62,397 nucleotides of DNA from an uncultured Bacteroidales bacterium (GCA_964411675.1 CAYPLR010000005.1:1-62397); one strand, 5' to 3'; counted from the stretch's first letter, positions 32,815-45,474 are shown. Notes: generated from the letters alone by a model not told the origin. Made by a program: numbers and translations.

Positions 32815-33828
32815 ATGAAAGTTTTTATTATTGGTGGAACAGGATTGTTAGGAAGCCAAGCAGCAGAAGAATTAATTAAAAGGGGACACAAAGTGTCATC
32901 CATTGCACTACCGCCAATACCTGAGGGAGCAAATCTACCGAAGGATATGAAAATACATTTAGGTAACTATTTAGAAATGTCAGATGAAGAATTACTATTT
33001 CATCTCGAAGGTTGTGAAGGATTTGTATTTGCAGCAGGAGTGGATGAGAGAATCGAGAGACCACCATCGATATATCAATTCTTTAAGAAATATAATATTG
33101 ATACAGTAAAAAGGTTGTTGGGACTTGCAAAAAAAGCAGGTGTTAAACATACCGTTATTCTTGGTTCATATTTTTCTTATTTTGCAAAGAAAAACCCAGA
33201 ATTAGAACTTACAAAATGGCATCCATACATTCGTAGCCGAGTAGAACAAGAAAACGAAGCCTTTAAATTTGCAGATGGTGATTTTAATGTAGCTGTTTTA
33301 GAGCTACCATATATTTTTGGGACACAGGCAGGACGTAAACCAGTTTGGACTTTTTTAGTAGAAAATTTATTAGCAATGAAAAGAATAACTTTCTATCCAA
33401 AAGGTGGAACAGCCATGTTAACAGTAAGGCAAGTAGGGGAAGCAATTGCAGGAGCATTGGAAAAAAATCTTGGAGCAAGGGCTTATCCAATTGGTTACTA
33501 CAATATGGAATGGAAAGAAATGATTTCGATATTTAATAAATACATTGGACGAGAAAAAAACAAAATTATAACAATACCTAAATTTATGTATCGAATGTCA
33601 ATGAAAAAAATAATGAAAGATCAAATAGAAAACAATATTGAAGGTGGTCTTCATATGGTAAAGTTTACTGATCTTCAATGTTCAAATTTATTTATTGATA
33701 AAGATTTGGGTTGTGAACTATTAGGTGTTAGGGATGACAACATTGATGAAGCAATTGGACAATCTGCAAAATTAAGTATAGAGGTTATTACAAATAAAAA
33801 AAGAGTTGTGGAAATGAAAGAAGAATAA
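32815..33828 (+). CDS. NAD-dependent epimerase/dehydratase (extended SDR)
   Basis: GGTGLLG Rossmann motif, YIRSR (YxxxK-like), LELPYIFG. Confidence 0.8.
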   Translation: MKVFIIGGTGLLGSQAAEELIKRGHKVSSIALPPIPEGANLPKDMKIHLGNYLEMSDEELLFHLEGCEGFVFAAGVDERIERPPSIYQFFKKYNIDTVKRLLGLAKKAGVKHTVILGSYFSYFAKKNPELELTKWHPYIRSRVEQENEAFKFADGDFNVAVLELPYIFGTQAGRKPVWTFLVENLLAMKRITFYPKGGTAMLTVRQVGEAIAGALEKNLGARAYPIGYYNMEWKEMISIFNKYIGREKNKIITIPKFMYRMSMKKIMKDQIENNIEGGLHMVKFTDLQCSNLFIDKDLGCELLGVRDDNIDEAIGQSAKLSIEVITNKKRVVEMKEE

Positions 33829-33873: not shown

Positions 33874-33927
33874 TAGACAAGCGCTTTCATATATGCTATA
33901 ATTTAATTGTATCGGTCGCTTGACCGA
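33874..33927 (+). promoter_or_regulatory. Promoter of the TetR operon with palindromic operator
   Basis: TAGACA-17 nt-TATAAT (extended TG) followed by TCGGTC-GCTT-GACCGA at 33912-27. Confidence 0.75.
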
Positions 33928-33942
33928 CAAAGGAGTTTATAT

Positions 33943-34518
33943 ATGGCCAAAAAAATGAACATAGATATGCGCAATGAAATTCTAAAAAGTGTAGAGAGTT
34001 TAATCTCTATGTCTGGCGTAAATTCTATTTCTTTGAAGGATATAGCTAAGACTTGTAACATCAGTAAAGGAACCCTTTATTATTACTATACAACCAAGGA
34101 TGAGATTATTTTCGATGTCATTGTCAAGCATGTACAAGAATTACATAAGGAATATCTTGATTGGATTGAGCGTCATCAACAAGATTTGACAATCGAAAGA
34201 TTCTTAAGTGTTATTTTATACAAAGGAGTTAAATTGTTTAATCGAGCGAAATTACATATTTTTTTAGTGAATGAATGTATCAAGGGGAATGATGTTCTTC
34301 GCAATAAATTTAACGAATTATGGAATGAATGGCATAAAATTTTACAATTAGGTATCAAAAAAGCATTTAATAACGAACAGGAATCTGAAGATATTGCTTA
34401 TTTGTTGATGCTAATTATTGATGGCTTAGCAATCCAAGAAGTCCTACAAAATCAAACAATAAGCGAACAAAGAATCATAGGATTAATGAAAAAGATAGGT
34501 GAATGGGATGCTAGATAA
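33943..34518 (+). CDS. TetR/AcrR-family transcriptional regulator
   Basis: SLKDIAKTCNISKGTLYYYYTTKDEI HTH; start set to ATG 33943 behind AAGGAG. Confidence 0.92.
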   Translation: MAKKMNIDMRNEILKSVESLISMSGVNSISLKDIAKTCNISKGTLYYYYTTKDEIIFDVIVKHVQELHKEYLDWIERHQQDLTIERFLSVILYKGVKLFNRAKLHIFLVNECIKGNDVLRNKFNELWNEWHKILQLGIKKAFNNEQESEDIAYLLMLIIDGLAIQEVLQNQTISEQRIIGLMKKIGEWDAR

Positions 34519-36226
34519 AATTGTTGAAAGATTGAATAGGAAAATTCATTTGATCAATCCAAATGTCAATCTTTCCTTGAAAGAGGATTGCGCTTTATTA
34601 ACTGGTTCTAGCAATACTTGGGATGAAATTGTTGATCTTGGAAGAATGGTAGCAAGAACTAAAAAGTTCTACGGTGTGATTAACGATATAAAGTTAAAAA
34701 ATTTTGTTGAACCGAAGATGAGAATTTCTAGTACAATAGATCATGCCTATGAGGGGTTGAGGGTGGATGTTCTTGTTATTGGCGGGGGGATTGTTGGAGC
34801 AGCCATAGCAAGAGAATTGACGAAGTATAATTTGAAAATAGCACTTGTTGAAAAAGAGGATGATTTAGCTTTACATGCAAGCAGCCGTAATGATGGATGT
34901 ATTCATGTAGGAATCGATTTAAATAGTAAAACGAAGAAACTAGAATATTTACGTCGTAGCGTTCTTGTTTATGAAGAACTTGCAAAGAACTTGGATGTTG
35001 ACTACGACAAAATGGGACAGATTATAGCGTTTAAAAGCAATTGGGAACGATTTATTTATTTGATTTTAAAACTAAGAATCAAAAAAAATGGAATTCAGGA
35101 AACTAAGTTTTTGAATCGTGAAGAATTGTTTAAACGGGAACCCAATTTAAATAAAATTGCAAAATTTGGTATTTTATTTGGCACTGGAGCTTGTATTTGT
35201 CCTTATAATATGACGATTGCTCTTGCTGAAAATGCAGTTATGAATGGGGCAAAAGTTTTATTATCTACAGCGGTATTATCAATGGAAGTAAAAAACAAAG
35301 AAATTATCAGTGTAGAAACGAATCGAGGAAGAATATTCCCGAAAGTTGTCATTAATGCTGCGGGAGTATTTAGCGATATCGTGGCAGAAATGGCAGAAGA
35401 TAGATTTTTTTCTATCCATCCAAGAAAAGGGACTAATGCGATTTTAGATAAAAAAGCAAAAGATAAATTAATGTTTCAATCAACAACAATTTATGGAGGG
35501 CTGAAAAAAGCAGCGAAGGCTCACACAAAAGGGGGAGGAGTCATTCCTACTGTAGATGGAAACACTTTAGTGGGACCTACTGCAATTGAAACTCCTTATC
35601 GCGAGGACTTTACAACTAGCAGTGAAGAAATAAAACAAGTTTTTTCTAAGCATAAAAATAACGCTCCTAATCTACATCAAAGAGATATCATTACCTATTT
35701 TAGTGGGATAAGAGCAGCAACTTATGAAGAAGATTTTATTATTCAAAAAGGAAAATGGACAAAAAATATCATTCATGCTGCTGGAATACAATCACCAGGC
35801 TTAACGGCAGCTCCCGCAATAGCTGAAGATGTGGTAAAATATACTTGTGATATTTTAGGGGACATGACTAAAAACGAACATTTCAATCCTATTAGAAAAG
35901 GAATAATTAGAGTGAATAAACTTCCTTATGAGGAAAGAAACAAATTAATTTTAGAAAATCCCGATTATGGTCAAATTGTATGTCGTTGTGAAGAAATCAG
36001 CAAAGGTGAAATTATTGATGCATTACATCGACCGATTGCCGTATCAACAGTTGATGCAATTAAAAAAAGAACAAGAGCGGGAATGGGACGATGCCAAGGA
36101 GGATTTTGTCAACCATTAGTAATGGGGATTATTGCAAAAGAAATGAAATTAAATATAGAAAATATTAACAAAAAAGGGGACGGAAAAATTTTGTTACATC
36201 GGACAAAGGGTGATTATCTTGAATAA
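34499..36226 (+). CDS. GlpA/L2HGDH-like FAD-dependent dehydrogenase with N-terminal BON-like domain and C-terminal BFD-like [2Fe-2S] motif
   Basis: [45 protein letters not shown]...[12 protein letters not shown]; start may be ATG 34508. Confidence 0.85.
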
Positions 36227-37463
36227 ATATGATGTGGTTGTTATTGGTGGCGGACCTGCAGGGCTGGCAGCCAGTAAAAGTGCGCATAAGAATGGAGCAA
36301 AAACCCTATTAATTGAACGAGAAGGTCAACTTGGGGGAATCTTAAAACAATGTATTCATGATGGATTTGGGCTGGAGCGTTTTAAAGAAAAACTAAGTGG
36401 ACCTGAATATATTCATAAAGAAATAAAAGAATTACCAATAGAGTTAGAAATCAGTTTATTAACTTATGTAACAAAAATTACAAAAGTAGAAAAAGGATTT
36501 GAACTTGTTTTAGTGAATCGTCAAGGGATTAACATCATCGAAACTAGAAAAATAATTCTAGCAACAGGGTGCCGAGAAAGAACATCCAAACAAGTATCTA
36601 TCCATGGAACAAGTCCAGCAGGGGTGTTAACAGCGGGAACCGCTCAATACTTTATCAACATTTTAGGAGAAATGCCAACGAAAACTTGTATAATTTTAGG
36701 TAGTGGTGATATTGGCTTAATCATGGCAAGGCGGATTACTCTTGAAGGTGGGAAAGTTATTGGAGTTTATGAAGCAAAAAGCACACCAAGCGGATTGACG
36801 AGAAATATCGTACAGTGTTTAGAAGATTATCAAATTCCTTTATATTTAAGCCATACTGTTACTAAAGTGTTTGGTACTAATCGCCTTGAAGCAGTAGAGA
36901 TAAGCAAGGTAGATGAAAATATGCAGCCTATTAAAGGAACTGAAGAGACATTAGCTTGTGATGCATTAATCTTATCGGTAGGACTTATTCCGGAGAATGA
37001 AATAGCAGATAGTATTGGAGTAAAAATCAATGTTAAAACAAAAGGACCTCTATGTGATCAGACACTGATGACTAGTTTGTCTGATGTTTATTGTTGTGGC
37101 AATGCCTTGCATGTAAACGATTTGGTGGATTATGTTTCAGAAAGCGGAGAAATCGCAGGAGAAAACGCAGCAAAAATTGAGAAAAATAGGGAAAGAAAAC
37201 TAATAGATGTGAAGGCAAATCAAAAAATCATGTATACAGTACCTTCTTTGATTGATTTGAATTGTGAAACAAAGAAAACTATTCTATATTTTCGTTCAAC
37301 AGAAGTCTTCGAAAAGCAAAAATTAGTAATTTATGGTAATGATGAAATTGTTTTTTCAAAAAAATATAACTACATTAAACCTCCAGAAATGGAAAGAGTG
37401 GAAATAGATCTATCAAGCGTAAAAAATCTTCAAGAAATTAAAGTGGTTCTTGAAGATGAATAA
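36210..37463 (+). CDS. NAD(P)/FAD-dependent oxidoreductase (usual partner of GlpA-like enzymes)
   Basis: [57 protein letters not shown]. Confidence 0.85.
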
Positions 37464-37560
37464 AGATATATTGCTAGATAAAAATATTACTAATCAAGTT
37501 AAATGGATAAATAATGAATTGACAAGGAATAAAAATGAATTATATAGGAGAAAAATGTGA
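37456..37560 (+). CDS. Putative 34-aa small ORF ([34 protein letters not shown])
   Basis: ATG overlaps the upstream stop; its TGA overlaps the GTG start of the kinase; no recognisable domain. Confidence 0.35.
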
Positions 37561-39128
37561 AAAAAAAGACATTAATTTTAACATTCGATTGTGGTACACA
37601 AAGTATTAGAGGTTTAATTTTTGATCAAGAGGGAAATATTTTAGCGAAAGAACAAGAATATTTTGAGCCTTATTTTTCTCGCGAACCAGGATTTGCTGAG
37701 CAAAAATGGGAAGTTTATTGGAATGCATTTACAACTGTTTCTAAGAAAATTCATCAAAACAATCCAGAATTAGTAGAAATGATTGCAGCAGTTACTACAA
37801 CAACCATTCGAGATACCAATATTTGCATTGATCAAGAGGGGAATCTACTACGAGACATTATTGTTTGGATGGATCAACGAAAAGCAAAATGTGAAAAGCC
37901 ATTACCTAAAAAAAATGCTCTTATTTTCAATTTAGTTGGAATGGGAGAAGCTTTAGAAGGGCAAAGAAAGGTCACGAAAAGTAATTGGTTGCAAGAAAAT
38001 GAACCCGAAATATGGAATAAAACGTATAAATACATCTTATTTAGTGGATACTTAAACTATGTATTGACAGGGAAAATCGTAGATTCTTATGCTAATCAAG
38101 TAGCCCACATACCATTTGATTATAAAAATAAAACATGGCAAAAAGAAAACGGATTGACATTCCCTGTATTTAATGTTCCCCTAGACAAACTTCCTGATTT
38201 AGTAAATCCAGGGGATATCTTAGGAACAATCACAAAGAAAGCAAGTCTTGAAACAGGTATTAAAGAAGGAACACCACTGATTGCTACAGGATCAGATAAA
38301 GGTTGTGAGACATTAGGTAGTGGAGTATTAAGCGAAAATGTCGCTTCGCTTAGTTTTGGAACAACAGCAACCATTCAATTTGCAACGAAAAGGTATATAG
38401 AGCCAGATACTTTTTTACCAGCATATCCAGGAATTGTAAAAGAATACTACAATCCTGAAGTGCAAATTTATCGTGGCTTTTGGATGATTAGCTGGTTTAA
38501 ACAAGAATTTGCTCAAAGAGAAGTTGTTGAAGCAAAAAGACTAGGAATAGCACCAGAAATAATACTAAATAAAATGTTGGCTGAAGTAGCACCAGGCTCA
38601 GAAGGATTGATTTTACAGCCGTTCTGGGATCCAATGCTTAAGAATCCGGAAGCAAGAGGTTCTATTATAGGCTTCACATCTGATCATACAAGAAAACATA
38701 TTTATAGAGCCATTATTGAGGGAATAGGCTATGCTTTATATCATGGTATGAAAGCAGTAGAAAAGCGAATGAAGACAAAAATAGAGTACTTAACTGTTTC
38801 AGGCGGGGGTTCACAAAGTGATGAGATATGTCAAATAACAGCTGATTTGTTTGGACTACCAGTAAAGAGAATCCAGACATATGAAGCTTGTGGGTTAGGA
38901 AGTTCTATGGTTGGTTTTGTAACACTTGGAATTTATAAAGACTATCATGAAGCGATTGATCATATGGTTAGATATGTGAAAGTGTTTGAACCTAATCCTA
39001 AAAATTATGAAATTTACCAAGAAATTTATCATGAAGTATATAATAAAATATATAAACAATTAAAACCACTATATTCGAAAATGAAAACAATGGCAAAAAA
39101 GAAGGAGGACAAGCATGAAACCATATAA
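37557..39128 (+). CDS. FGGY-family carbohydrate kinase (YgcE-like)
   Basis: DCGTQSIRG, WMDQR, GSDKGCE, SFGTTA, ARGSIIG, IYRAIIEG, GGGSQSD. Confidence 0.88.
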   Translation: MKKKTLILTFDCGTQSIRGLIFDQEGNILAKEQEYFEPYFSREPGFAEQKWEVYWNAFTTVSKKIHQNNPELVEMIAAVTTTTIRDTNICIDQEGNLLRDIIVWMDQRKAKCEKPLPKKNALIFNLVGMGEALEGQRKVTKSNWLQENEPEIWNKTYKYILFSGYLNYVLTGKIVDSYANQVAHIPFDYKNKTWQKENGLTFPVFNVPLDKLPDLVNPGDILGTITKKASLETGIKEGTPLIATGSDKGCETLGSGVLSENVASLSFGTTATIQFATKRYIEPDTFLPAYPGIVKEYYNPEVQIYRGFWMISWFKQEFAQREVVEAKRLGIAPEIILNKMLAEVAPGSEGLILQPFWDPMLKNPEARGSIIGFTSDHTRKHIYRAIIEGIGYALYHGMKAVEKRMKTKIEYLTVSGGGSQSDEICQITADLFGLPVKRIQTYEACGLGSSMVGFVTLGIYKDYHEAIDHMVRYVKVFEPNPKNYEIYQEIYHEVYNKIYKQLKPLYSKMKTMAKKKEDKHETI

Positions 39129-40842
39129 AGATTTTGAACCGCACTGGTTTGAAGAACCTGCTCCGAAGAAAAGTTATCGCTCTATTTTTAAGTGGGGAGA
39201 TCCTAGTTTTCGTAAAATACCCCGTGAAAATTTATACAAATTAATCAAGGAAAGTTTTCAAATGACAGATGAGGATTTCAAACAATATGATGGAGACTTG
39301 GGACTTGACGAGGTAAAGTTTGATATTCCCGTGGGACTAGCCAAGGAGCACATTGTTTTTTTAGAAAGTGTTGTGGGGAAAGAATTCGTAAAATCCGATG
39401 ACTATTCACGATTGAGTGTAGCGTATGGAAAAACAATGTATGATTTACTAAGGTTGCGTAAGAAGATAATTGAGAATATTCCTGATGTAGTTGTCTATCC
39501 AGATAAAAAAGAAGAAATTGAAAAAATTATTGCTTATGCATCAGAGCACAAAATACCGATTTATGTTTATGGTGGAGGCAGTAGTGTCACTCGGGGAGTA
39601 GAGTGTATGCAAGGCGGAATTTCCTTGGATATGCGTCTACGATACAATAAAGTAATTGATTTTAATGAAAAAGACCAAACGATTACTGTACAAACGGGAA
39701 TGAGTGGTCCTAAATTAGAGGAAACTTTGAATCAGGCTCAATCACTTTTTAAAGCAAAAAGAGCATATACTTGTGGACATTTTCCTCAGTCTTTTGAATA
39801 TAGTTCTGTAGGAGGTTGGGTAGTGACAAGAGGTGCTGGGCAAAATAGCACTTATTATGGAAAAATTGAAGATTTAGTTTTATGTCAAAAATATGCTACT
39901 CCAAAAGGAAATATCATTACCTCTAATTATCCAAGAGAAGCTACGGGGCCCTCAATCAATCATATTATGATGGGATCAGAAGGAACCTTTGGTGTCCTAA
40001 CCGAGGTGACCTTACGGATATTTAGATATATGCCAGAGAATCGTGTTCGCTTTTCATATATGTTTAAAAATTGGGAAATAGCTCGAGAAGCAGCACGGGA
40101 AATGATGCAAAGCGAGGCAGGAAACGCATCTGTGTTCCGTTTATCAGATCCGGAAGAAACAAACATAATGATGAGGTTATATGGAGTAGATCAAAGCCCA
40201 TTAGCAAAACTATTTAAAATCATGGGACTAAAACCGATGGAAAAATGTTTATTTTTAGGATTTACGGATGGCGAAAAAGGATTCTCTCATAATGTAGCTA
40301 GAAACATAAGAAGAATAGCACGAAAATATAAGGGAATGAATTTAACTGGTGTGGTTACTAAAGCATGGGAAAAAGGAAGATTCAATGATCCATATTTGCG
40401 CGATTCCATGCAAGACTTTGGAATTATGACCGATACATTGGAGTGCTCTGTTAATTGGTCAAATATGCAAGAAGTGTATGAGAAAGTAAGAACTTATTGT
40501 AAATCAAGACCGAATACGATTTGTACAACTCACATGTCTCATGTATATCCACAAGGAGCAAATCTTTATTTTATTTTTATTGCGAAAATGAATGAAATAG
40601 ATGACTTTAAAACTTATCATAGTGGAATCCTAGATGCCATTCAAAGTTCAGGAGCAGCGATGAGCCATCACCACGGAATAGGGAAAATGTTTGGTCCTTG
40701 GTTAGAGGGGCAATTAGGTAAAAATGAATATGAAATCATCAAAGTTTTAAAAAAACACTTTGATCCTGATAATATCATGAATCCTGGAGGCACGTTAGGT
40801 TTAGATACTAGAAGTGAAGATAAAAGATTTCTAAAAAAATAA
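39115..40842 (+). CDS. FAD-binding oxidoreductase, alkyl-dihydroxyacetonephosphate synthase (ADPS/YgcU)-like
   Basis: PDVVVYP, YGGGSSV, GHFPQSFEYSSVGGWVVTRGAG, GSEGTFGV, GANLYF, SHHHGIG. Confidence 0.85.
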   Translation: MKPYKDFEPHWFEEPAPKKSYRSIFKWGDPSFRKIPRENLYKLIKESFQMTDEDFKQYDGDLGLDEVKFDIPVGLAKEHIVFLESVVGKEFVKSDDYSRLSVAYGKTMYDLLRLRKKIIENIPDVVVYPDKKEEIEKIIAYASEHKIPIYVYGGGSSVTRGVECMQGGISLDMRLRYNKVIDFNEKDQTITVQTGMSGPKLEETLNQAQSLFKAKRAYTCGHFPQSFEYSSVGGWVVTRGAGQNSTYYGKIEDLVLCQKYATPKGNIITSNYPREATGPSINHIMMGSEGTFGVLTEVTLRIFRYMPENRVRFSYMFKNWEIAREAAREMMQSEAGNASVFRLSDPEETNIMMRLYGVDQSPLAKLFKIMGLKPMEKCLFLGFTDGEKGFSHNVARNIRRIARKYKGMNLTGVVTKAWEKGRFNDPYLRDSMQDFGIMTDTLECSVNWSNMQEVYEKVRTYCKSRPNTICTTHMSHVYPQGANLYFIFIAKMNEIDDFKTYHSGILDAIQSSGAAMSHHHGIGKMFGPWLEGQLGKNEYEIIKVLKKHFDPDNIMNPGGTLGLDTRSEDKRFLKK

Positions 40843-40857
40843 AAAAACAATGAAAAG

Positions 40858-40883
40858 AAAGAGCTAAATTTCAGCTCTTTTTT
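40858..40883 (+). terminator. Intrinsic terminator ending the TetR operon
   Basis: AAAGAGCT-7 nt-AGCTCTTT plus TTT. Confidence 0.75.
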
Positions 40884-40952
40884 CTATCTTTTTTCAAAGA
40901 TAAGAACTAGGATAAAATCCTATAATTTGTTAGAATAATAGAGGGGGAGTTT

Positions 40953-41354
40953 ATGAATGAATTCACGTTATATTTCTTTGAGGAAAGAGAAAAAACTATT
41001 ATTTGGGACTTTAATGGGGTTAAAATAAAAAATAATCATTATAAGAAGATTCTAAAAGAGATTTGTGAAAAAGAAGTAACTACATTATATGCAAGAATGG
41101 AAATTGTTAAAAAAATAACAAAAAGACGGAACAATGTTCCTTTGTACATTAATAATCAATTATTACTTTTTAAGATTAAAGCAATACCGAATATTTGGAT
41201 TAATTACTTTAATGTACTAGAATATGAAAGTGAAAATAAAAAAACAAGGGTAATATTTAAGAATGGAACTACATTATTAATTAATAAAAGAATAAAATAT
41301 TTGCGAGAGACGATAAAAGTTATAAAAAAGATAACGTTTTACACACGAAAATAG
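40953..41354 (+). CDS. ComK-family-like protein
   Basis: Pattern ILKEIC..TTLYAR..VKKI...NVPLYI..LLF..IWINYFNV..TRVIFKNGT.L resembles ComK by eye; SD GGGGAG. Confidence 0.6.
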   Translation: MNEFTLYFFEEREKTIIWDFNGVKIKNNHYKKILKEICEKEVTTLYARMEIVKKITKRRNNVPLYINNQLLLFKIKAIPNIWINYFNVLEYESENKKTRVIFKNGTTLLINKRIKYLRETIKVIKKITFYTRK

Positions 41355-44097: not shown

Positions 44098-45474
44098 GTG
44101 AGTAAAATGAATATAAGAGAAATTGTTGCAAATCAAAGAACATATTTTAATACGGGGGTTACAAAAGATTTAAAATTCCGATTAAAAGCACTGAATGATT
44201 TACAGGACTCCATTCTTTTTCATGAACAAGATATTTTACTGGCGTTAAAAAAAGACTTAAACAAATCAGATATTGAAGCATATATGACAGAAATCAGTTT
44301 ATTACTAGAAGATTTGAAATATATAAAAAGAAAATTACCGAAATGGGGAAAGCCTACCAGAGTAAAAACAGCTTTAATGCAAACACCTGCTCGTTGCTAT
44401 GTTGTGAAAGAGCCTTATGGAGTTAGTCTAATTATGTCGCCCTGGAATTACCCACTACTATTGGCATTAAGTCCCCTAATAGGCTCTATTGCTGCAGGTA
44501 ATTGTGCAGTAGTGAAACCCTCTGCTTATGCTCCTGCAACCTCTTTGGTAATCGAGAAAATCATTACAAAAATTTATAATCAAGAATATTGTGCCGTTAT
44601 TCAGGGTGGTAGAGCAGAAAACACTGAACTATTAAAGCAAAAGTTTGACTATATATTTTTTACTGGAAGTGTTGAAGTAGGAAAACTTGTGATGGAATCA
44701 GCAGCAATAAATCTAACTCCAGTAAGCTTAGAACTAGGGGGAAAAAGTCCGGTTATTATCGAGAAATCTGCAGATATTGATATGGCAGCTAAAAAGCTTG
44801 TTTTTGGAAAGTATATCAACGCTGGACAAACATGCATTGCCCCTGATTATGTATTAGTCCATAAAAGTCAGGAAGATCAATTAATAACCTCACTCCAAAA
44901 ATATATTAAAGAGTTTTACCCCGAAGATAATGAGGGAAATGTGGTTGATTACCCAAGAATTGTAAACGAAAGACATTTCGAGCGATTAAAAAATTTGATT
45001 GAGATTGAAAAAGTTGTAATTGGAGGTAAAACAAAGACACAAAGCTTATCAATCGTTCCTACTGTCATGAAGGATATCGATTACAATAGTCCTATCATGC
45101 AAGAAGAAATATTTGGACCTATTTTACCAATCATTACCTATGATGATTTAGAGGAAGTTATTAAAAAACAGCAATCCTTACCAAAACCACTAGCACTTTA
45201 TTTGTTCACAAATAACAATGAAATTAAAAAGCGTATTCTGAATGACATCTCTTTTGGTGGTGGGTGTATTAATGATGTAATTTTACATATAGCAACTCCA
45301 TATATGGGATTTGGTGGTGTTGGTAATAGTGGTATGGGAAGCTATCATGGGAAATCGAGTTTTGATACATTTACTCATGAAAAGAGTATTGTTGATAAAG
45401 GAAAAGGAATTGATTTATCGATTAGATATCGCCCATATACAGATAAAAAGAAAAAATGGCTTAAGAAGATTTAA
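44098..45474 (+). CDS. Aldehyde dehydrogenase, ALDH3/YwdH-like
   Basis: PWNYP, VKPS, FTGS, LELGGKSP, NAGQTCIAPDY, EEIFGP, GGVGNSGMGSYHG. Confidence 0.92.
   Translation: MSKMNIREIVANQRTYFNTGVTKDLKFRLKALNDLQDSILFHEQDILLALKKDLNKSDIEAYMTEISLLLEDLKYIKRKLPKWGKPTRVKTALMQTPARCYVVKEPYGVSLIMSPWNYPLLLALSPLIGSIAAGNCAVVKPSAYAPATSLVIEKIITKIYNQEYCAVIQGGRAENTELLKQKFDYIFFTGSVEVGKLVMESAAINLTPVSLELGGKSPVIIEKSADIDMAAKKLVFGKYINAGQTCIAPDYVLVHKSQEDQLITSLQKYIKEFYPEDNEGNVVDYPRIVNERHFERLKNLIEIEKVVIGGKTKTQSLSIVPTVMKDIDYNSPIMQEEIFGPILPIITYDDLEEVIKKQQSLPKPLALYLFTNNNEIKKRILNDISFGGGCINDVILHIATPYMGFGGVGNSGMGSYHGKSSFDTFTHEKSIVDKGKGIDLSIRYRPYTDKKKKWLKKI

Follow-up and report, generated by a model that had tools for sequence, protein, structure and literature searches.

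A repressor-controlled anaerobe operon combines an ADPS-like flavoprotein with a kinase and a glycerol-3-phosphate dehydrogenase homologue and may serve 1-O-radylglycerol breakdown

A 62,397-nucleotide stretch of DNA from an uncultured Bacteroidales bacterium (GCA_964411675.1 CAYPLR010000005.1:1-62397), termed the window at its full length, carries an operon whose last gene encodes a flavoprotein predicted to be of the alkyl-dihydroxyacetone phosphate synthase (ADPS or AGPS) type. The operon also encodes a TetR-family repressor, a flavin adenine dinucleotide (FAD)- and [2Fe-2S]-type dehydrogenase homologue (FngA), an NAD(P)/FAD oxidoreductase subunit (FngB) and an FGGY-family kinase. Related cassettes recur in many anaerobic bacteria, and their invariant unit is a kinase, an enzyme of the glycerol-3-phosphate (G3P) dehydrogenase type and an ADPS-type enzyme. 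From its sequence, the operon may constitute an inducible pathway for a 1-O-radylglycerol, likeliest a 1-O-alkyl- or alk-1-enyl-glycerol derived from ether lipids, and would then cleave an ether bond without O2. This reading is favoured here, although our confidence in it stays a little below even. No published function for the cassette was found in the literature searched.

The flavoprotein contains an FAD_binding_4 domain (PF01565, E 1.3e-30) and an FAD-oxidase_C domain (PF02913, E 5.1e-28). In a comparison with all Protein Data Bank (PDB) sequences, it matches Dictyostelium ADPS (2uuu, E 4.4e-71, residues 30-558) and guinea-pig ADPS (4bby, E 8.6e-58), and the next family, D-lactate dehydrogenase (D-LDH), follows at E 4e-19. 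The sequence-only reading, made earlier from the DNA, had matched a SHHHG motif and a GAxxYF tyrosine to the catalytic histidine and tyrosine of ADPS. Alignment to the guinea-pig and Dictyostelium enzymes confirmed this match, as the motifs MSHHHGIG (residues 516-523) and GANLYFIF (residues 481-488) bring their histidines and tyrosine into register with Tyr578 and His615-617 of the guinea-pig protein and with the Dictyostelium counterparts. The flavoprotein residues R342, R429, Y485 and H518-520 align with R352, R447, Y508 and the HHH loop of Dictyostelium ADPS, which are reported to be important for catalysis together with R419 and Y578 of the guinea-pig enzyme (PMC3509576). R342, R429, Y485 and H518-520 do not vary among 77 bacterial homologues (56-78% identity) or within a set of 34.

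The N-terminal domain that is specific to ADPS, with its sheet and gating helix, is also present. The alignment to 2uuu begins at query residue 30, and the first 120 residues are conserved across the family. When the AlphaFold2 (AF2) model of the flavoprotein (pLDDT 85.5) was compared with the PDB by Foldseek, the 37 top matches were all ADPS chains (E ~1e-33, TM 0.78-0.82, ~540 columns). The TMt values to ADPS chains are 0.81-0.82, in contrast to a TMq value of 0.67 to D-LDH, which lacks the N-terminal domain. With the catalytic set and the ADPS-only domain both in place, the earlier assignment of the last gene holds, and alignments and predicted structure alike point to a true ADPS-type protein rather than one of the GlcD/D-LDH type.

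The window was confirmed to contain one operon of five co-directional genes at 33874-40893, with one promoter and one terminator, as had been proposed from the sequence (Table 1). The overlaps between successive genes are 20, 17 and 14 nt, and the only gap, of 93 nt, lies between the oxidoreductase and kinase genes. The operon promoter comes after the terminator of the preceding gene. The inverted repeat downstream of the promoter is a GC-rich element in a spacer otherwise rich in AT and lies over the expected transcription start; the organism is Bacilli-like and low in GC (~31%). The repressor matches TetR_N (PF00440, E 5.9e-09, 36 bits against a cut-off of 24) and TetR_C_6 (E 4e-04), and its matches to the curated BetI and Bacillus FadR models are weak and sub-threshold. 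An upstream gene encoding a short-chain dehydrogenase/reductase (SDR)-like protein (32815-33828) was considered as a cassette member and rejected: it ends in a terminator of its own, shows no homology to its positional counterpart in the related locus L087 and is not conserved in the other loci.

Table 1. Genes and control elements of the operon (window coordinates)
Feature	Position	Strand	Description
Sigma-70-type promoter, TAGACA-17 nt-TATAAT	33874-33902	+	TG extended -10; 11/12, top match of the region
Perfect inverted repeat, TCGGTC-GCTT-GACCGA	33912-33927		Candidate TetR operator; 10 nt 3' of the -10 box
TetR-family repressor	33943-34518	+	191 aa; operon gene 1; ATG behind AAGGAG
FngA/GlpA-type dehydrogenase homologue, FAD + [2Fe-2S]	34499-36226	+	575 aa
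FngB-type NAD(P)/FAD oxidoreductase subunit	36210-37463	+	417 aa
34-codon Cys-free open reading frame	37456-37560	+	Links the stop of FngB to the GTG start of the kinase
FGGY-family kinase	37557-39128	+	523 aa
ADPS/AGPS-like flavoprotein	39115-40842	+	575 aa
Intrinsic terminator	40855-40893	+	11-bp stem and T-rich tail; hairpin 40855-40883, 13 nt past the last stop

The conservation of the gene set was analysed in one genome per species. More than 579 loci encode a relative, and in the best 80 of these, open reading frames (ORFs) were called and clustered and the clusters were annotated. Counts of neighbours are lower bounds because of antisense shadow ORFs in high-GC loci (clusters c6, c15, c20, c31 and c32). 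Over 85 sources, the tally is 79 for the ADPS-like protein, 68 for FngB, 65 for FngA, 56 for the FGGY kinase, 47 for DUF1667 and at least 26 for TetR. Of the best 80, at least 65 independent loci contain the cassette; the gene set is far from a chance assembly. Its carriers include Clostridia, Bacilli-like and Acholeplasma/Anaeroplasma-like metagenome-assembled genomes (MAGs), Treponema, Brachyspira, Thermotogae, Anaerolineae, Caldisericota and others, and its cultured carriers include Clostridium cadaveris, Extibacter muris and Faecalicatena contorta. In six loci (L044, L035, L050, L043, L053 and L055) the cassette is Firmicute-like (63-70% identity), whereas the genome records bear the names Escherichia coli, Corallococcus, Hallerella, Alloprevotella and Bacteroidaceae. 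The contigs were probably mis-binned in MAGs, and the taxon labels of matches need caution. The region 33900-40900 of the window was found nearly identical in DNA metagenomes from wastewater, bioreactors, anaerobic digesters, biogas sources and lagoons, with no RNA runs among the matches.

The FngA homologue is composed of a DAO domain (E 5e-61) and a BFD-like [2Fe-2S] domain (Fer2_BFD, E 5e-13). It scores 225 bits against the curated model of type 2 G3P oxidase (cut-off 460) and 132 bits against that of GlpA (cut-off 553), and is thus predicted to be a homologue of G3P dehydrogenases but not an equivalog. FngB (Pyr_redox_2, E 8.5e-28) is encoded directly 3' of FngA in all related cassettes (68 loci). 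A GlpA-like dehydrogenase with an NAD(P)/FAD oxidoreductase had been recognised in the sequence-only reading; the homology stands, and the pair can now be refined to the FngAB type. The role of the FngB subunit is taken from FngABC of P. furiosus, a bifurcating, ferredoxin- and NAD-dependent G3P oxidoreductase reported in 2026 (PMC13689815). The window shares with that system the order of FngA (DAO and BFD [2Fe-2S]) and FngB, to which most relatives add FngC/DUF1667. It differs in an extra domain of FngA, in the kinase partner, which is not GlpK, and in the ADPS-like gene that always accompanies the pair.

The third subunit, FngC, an iron-sulfur protein required for bifurcation, is absent from the window. 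A tblastn search with 47 DUF1667 proteins gave no match in the window, and no such gene lies in the 93-nt slot. The 34-codon ORF occupies the exact place that FngC/DUF1667 takes in relatives and is possibly a mere translational-coupling spacer. An FngAB enzyme devoid of FngC would probably not bifurcate and would favour ketone reduction over oxidation (PMC13689815). The NAD-linked oxidation of a glycerol-phosphate moiety is thus energetically doubtful in the window organism.

The extra domain of FngA is an N-terminal extension of ~90 residues (34499-34774). It gives a sub-threshold match to BON (PF04972, E 0.007; 17 bits, cut-off 27), and AF2 models it at pLDDT 93 with the order alpha-beta-beta-alpha-beta. 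The fold matches in the PDB are weak (E 7e-3 to 0.1, TMq 0.53-0.59) and comprise DolP at the top, OsmY and, lower, BonA. The extension is found in 64 of the 64 cassette FngA proteins and is absent from a canonical 492-residue FngA in an Anaerolinea MAG (locus L083). BON domains are usually periplasmic, and the BON-like domain here is cytoplasmic and fused to an FAD dehydrogenase.

The kinase contains FGGY_N (E 6e-38) and FGGY_C (E 1e-27) domains and falls below every curated cut-off in the family, including those of XylB, the nearest (244 against 380 bits), GlpK (145 against 590 bits), GntK and LsrK. Alignment to E. coli GlpK shows that R83, W103 and the catalytic D245 are conserved in the cassette kinases and that position 84 is acidic (Asp). 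At the positions that close the GlpK pocket, smaller residues are found, with Y135 replaced by Q, L, I or V and F270 by T. These changes are compatible with a diol substrate larger than glycerol, without proving it. The window kinase is 41-57% identical to the kinases of 48 other cassettes and 28% identical to E. coli YgcE. An identity as GlpK is rejected by the low GlpK score and by the loss of Y135 and F270. The glycerol-type logic of kinase and GlpA that had been read from the sequence thus survives in part: a kinase and a G3P-dehydrogenase-type enzyme are fixed beside the ADPS-like gene in many phyla, but the kinase is not GlpK.

These scores bear directly on ordinary glycerol catabolism, in which glycerol would be converted via G3P to dihydroxyacetone phosphate (DHAP) and the flavoprotein would be an accessory GlcD/D-lactate-type dehydrogenase, acting for example on D-lactate from methylglyoxal. 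The homology to GlpA/FngA and the pairing of a kinase with a dehydrogenase would suit this explanation, as would pgk and tpiA, which lie 1.2 kb downstream of the operon. It is nevertheless very improbable, given the distance of the kinase from GlpK, the absence of GlpF and a flavoprotein that is 50 orders of magnitude nearer to ADPS than to D-LDH. Moreover, locus L083 contains a GlpD-type cassette (FadR, GlpD, ADPS and FGGY) together with a separate downstream canonical FngABC that has no N-terminal extension, and the cassette dehydrogenase is thus not simply the glycerol enzyme of the cell. A plain glycerol operon is rejected on the basis of the kinase and flavoprotein scores.

Variants of the cassette point to the nature of the substrate. 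In four loci (L005, L009, L088 and L089) the ADPS-like protein shares 74-77% identity with that of the window, and no FGGY gene is present. Instead, a 302-304-residue DAGK_cat/YegS_C protein is encoded 3-29 bp past the ADPS gene, and the lipid kinase of L088 passes the NCBIfam cut-off for YegS/Rv2252/BmrU (TIGR00147, 121 bits). The sister locus L087 (75% identity) carries the FGGY version. Six Anaerolineae loci encode a GlpD-type G3P dehydrogenase (DAO and DAO_C) where the window has FngAB, and their regulator is a GntR protein with an FadR_C domain (127 bits). A domain of the FadR_C type binds acyl-CoA in E. coli. DegV fatty-acid-binding proteins are encoded 3' of the cassette in two loci. 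No transporter family is recurrent among 110 co-directional neighbours of the related loci.

Because two unrelated families of G3P dehydrogenase fill the same slot, the substrate should carry a G3P moiety with a free C2 hydroxyl. ADPS-type enzymes act on DHAP substituted at O1. The exchange of FGGY for a lipid kinase, regulators of the FadR type, DegV as a neighbour, a BON-like domain on FngA and the absence of any conserved transporter all favour a long-chain radyl group. The simplest common denominator would be the conversion of a 1-O-radylglycerol to 1-O-radyl-G3P and then to 1-O-radyl-DHAP, followed by exchange or removal of the radyl group. As an ester could be hydrolysed, only an ether substituent would require the detour through a kinase and a dehydrogenase. 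Repressor control, a kinase that spends ATP and the catabolic FngABC type (PMC13689815) favour a degradative role. The ether-lipid proposal of the sequence-only reading is partly supported: it gains from a genome context that points to a lipid over a sugar, with its lipid-kinase and FadR swaps and no conserved transporter, and is weakened by the missing FngC.

In the favoured pathway for 1-O-radylglycerol, a lipophilic substrate would enter the cell without a transporter and free the operon from TetR control at the inverted repeat that overlaps the transcription start. The FGGY kinase would phosphorylate the free primary hydroxyl to yield 1-O-alkyl-sn-glycerol-3-phosphate, a step that the YegS/Rv2252-type lipid kinase would perform in the close relatives. 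FngA-FngB, docked to the membrane through the BON-like domain, would oxidise C2 to give 1-O-alkyl-DHAP. The ADPS-type flavoenzyme would then run the half-reactions of ADPS in reverse: the catalytic tyrosine would take the C1 proton, the carbanion would join flavin N5, and the alkoxy group would depart as a fatty alcohol, or as an aldehyde in the case of a vinyl ether. Addition of water or of a fatty acid would release DHAP or acyl-DHAP, and DHAP would pass into glycolysis, so that the net outcome would be cleavage of a glycerol ether bond without O2. The stronger proposition, that the module is the first O2-independent cleavage of 1-O-alkyl (and alkenyl) glycerolipid ethers, with an ADPS-type enzyme working in reverse and FGGY- or YegS-type proteins acting as alkylglycerol kinases, is doubtful on present evidence.

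Several observations weigh against this pathway. We know of no lipid substrate for an FGGY kinase, and an alkoxide is a worse leaving group than the carboxylate released by ADPS. About 15 related loci show no kinase beside the cassette, and one clade may account for all the lipid-kinase variants observed. About eight related loci have regulators of the GntR/UTRA type, whose usual ligands are small phosphorylated metabolites, and the distant E. coli ygc cluster has sugar-type transporters of the major facilitator superfamily (MFS). The window itself has FngAB without FngC, a combination that probably favours ketone reduction (PMC13689815).

Part of this evidence would fit a soluble substrate. 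The FGGY kinase would then phosphorylate a polyol or ketose, FngAB would convert the product into a DHAP-like ketose phosphate, and the ADPS-like protein would serve as a dehydrogenase or use a C1 carbanion and its flavin to isomerise the substrate or to remove a short alkyl, acyl or glycosyl group. Such an 'FnpAB(C)' route for a polyol or small glycerol derivative has an analogue in EryA and EryB, which act on erythritol. Its name derives from the FngABC paper, which makes no mention of ADPS-like genes and in which the 32% of FngABC enzymes that adjoin sugar kinases instead of glycerol genes are inferred to use other polyols and proposed as FnpABC (PMC13689815). The best models for the kinase (XylB, GntK and LsrK) and all known FGGY substrates are of the soluble kind, the GntR/UTRA regulators agree with them, and the E. 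coli ygcU/ygcE cluster, with its MFS sugar-type transporters and its SDR and electron-transfer flavoprotein (ETF) genes, suggests a redox use of a distant homologue. A soluble substrate is still rather unlikely, since the cassette has no conserved association with a sugar transporter, an isomerase or an aldolase, and a lipid kinase takes the kinase slot in close relatives. The FadR_C regulator, DegV and the BON-like domain also argue for a lipid. The ADPS-like proteins of different phyla (56-78% identity) still possess every ADPS catalytic residue and the N-terminal gating domain, whereas YgcU has lost the domain and one arginine.

The lipid-related features are also compatible with synthesis or remodelling of ether lipids independently of GNPAT. 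In this case, FngAB would oxidise lysophosphatidic acid, supplied by PlsY or through phosphorylation of monoacylglycerol by the kinase, to 1-acyl-DHAP, the ADPS-type enzyme would run forward and swap the acyl group for a fatty alcohol, and FngAB with NADH would reduce the resulting alkyl-DHAP to 1-alkyl-G3P for membrane ether lipids, a sequence that is redox-neutral overall. The flavoprotein has the catalytic residues of a synthase; a lipid kinase, a regulator of the FadR type, DegV and a BON-like domain would fit here too, and many of the carrier lineages are known to contain ether lipids or plasmalogens. The ketone reduction expected of FngAB lacking FngC, as in the window, rather favours synthesis (PMC13689815), and M. 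xanthus Agps is cited as a contributor to ether lipids (10.64898/2026.06.23.733905).

Synthesis is however unlikely. Neither of the pathway partners of ADPS, DHAP acyltransferase and fatty acyl reductase, nor another source of fatty alcohol was found in the cassette or among its recurrent neighbours in the 80 loci. Repressor control and a dedicated kinase would be unusual for housekeeping membrane synthesis, and most cassettes include FngC, the mark of the catabolic bifurcating form. Clostridial labelling work argues against a DHAP route to plasmalogens. Plasmalogens are already explained by the PlsA/PlsR route (PMC9702350).

Comparison with characterised systems places the favoured 1-O-radylglycerol pathway among known enzyme families. 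ADPS/AGPS (EC 2.5.1.26; 2UUU, 4BBY; M. xanthus Agps) and the window flavoprotein have the same domain order, the N-terminal domain and the same set of two arginines, a tyrosine and three histidines, at 26-27% identity by structural alignment. The carriers of the cassette differ in being strict anaerobes, and the partners of the window gene, in an operon under repressor control, are a kinase and an enzyme of the G3P-dehydrogenase type, not GNPAT and a fatty acyl reductase. The E. coli ygcU/ygcE pair of the orphan ygcN-ygcE cluster, cited earlier as a counterpart, likewise joins an FGGY kinase to a flavoprotein with an HHH loop. The likeness is distant (29% identity for YgcU and 28% for YgcE): YgcU (484 residues) has no ADPS N-terminal domain and has an alanine at the second catalytic arginine, and where the cassette has FngAB the E. 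coli cluster has ETF/FixCX genes together with an SDR and two MFS transporters.

The M. tuberculosis locus Rv2249c-Rv2252 resembles the cassette in its G3P dehydrogenase, regulator, flavoprotein and YegS/Rv2252/BmrU lipid kinase, but uses GlpD and the lipid kinase where the window uses FngAB and FGGY. We take Rv2251 to be ADPS-like and Rv2250c to be a TetR regulator. In a published table, glpD1 (Rv2249c), the regulator Rv2250c, the flavoprotein Rv2251 and the diacylglycerol kinase Rv2252 are adjacent and co-induced (PMC4564863). The first step proposed here, phosphorylation of 1-O-alkylglycerol, is the reaction of ACAD10, the animal alkylglycerol kinase of ether-lipid salvage, although the enzyme families are unrelated (PMC13596139). 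The proposed products, a fatty alcohol or aldehyde and a glycerol unit, are like those of alkylglycerol monooxygenase (AGMO). AGMO needs O2 and tetrahydrobiopterin and is described as the sole enzyme known to cleave the 1-O-alkyl bond (PMC9192799), whereas the route proposed here is independent of O2. The Brucella erythritol pathway shares the logic of an FGGY kinase (EryA) followed by a GlpD-like dehydrogenase (EryB) acting on a polyol phosphate, but continues with isomerases rather than an ADPS-like flavoenzyme and has transporters (PMC3245297).

Other genes were observed near the operon and its relatives. A monocistronic gene for a short ComK-like protein (PF06338, E 2.6e-08) lies directly past the operon terminator, at 40953-41354. 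An aldehyde dehydrogenase of the class-3 type (44098-45474, 458 residues; MdlD-like at 476 bits, below the cut-off) is encoded 3 kb downstream, and an Aldedh gene is also found just upstream of the L087 cassette (L087 1-239). The two could be a coincidence or a link to the handling of fatty aldehyde or alcohol. Loci L087 (11089-13420) and L088 (13062-15096) contain a glycerophosphodiester phosphodiesterase (GDPD) gene paired with an MFS transporter gene 2-5 kb from the cassette, in differing orientations. AMP-binding (acyl-CoA-synthetase-like) genes are located within 10 kb of the cassette in six loci (L022, L031, L053, L075, L077 and L082), and MBOAT acyltransferase genes are near it in four (L014, L017, L019 and L053); both are weak additional hints of lipid metabolism.

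Among animal phospholipids, about one in five is an ether lipid, and archaea and many anaerobes are rich in ether lipids. Because AGMO, the sole known cleaver of the 1-O-alkyl bond, needs O2, their fate in anoxic habitats is unexplained. The enzyme families of the cassette are known, but the pathway would be new. A widespread operon with an ADPS-type enzyme is a concrete candidate for the missing anoxic ether cleavage or for a GNPAT-independent route to bacterial ether lipids. A function could then be assigned to a sizeable fraction of the "non-glycerol" FngABC enzymes reported in 2026 and to many proteins annotated as "FAD-binding oxidoreductase" in gut Firmicutes, and the glpD1-Rv2251-Rv2252 locus of M. 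tuberculosis might possibly be explained. If cleavage is the true function, anaerobes in guts, rumens and digesters could consume or recycle ether lipids that no hydrolase opens.

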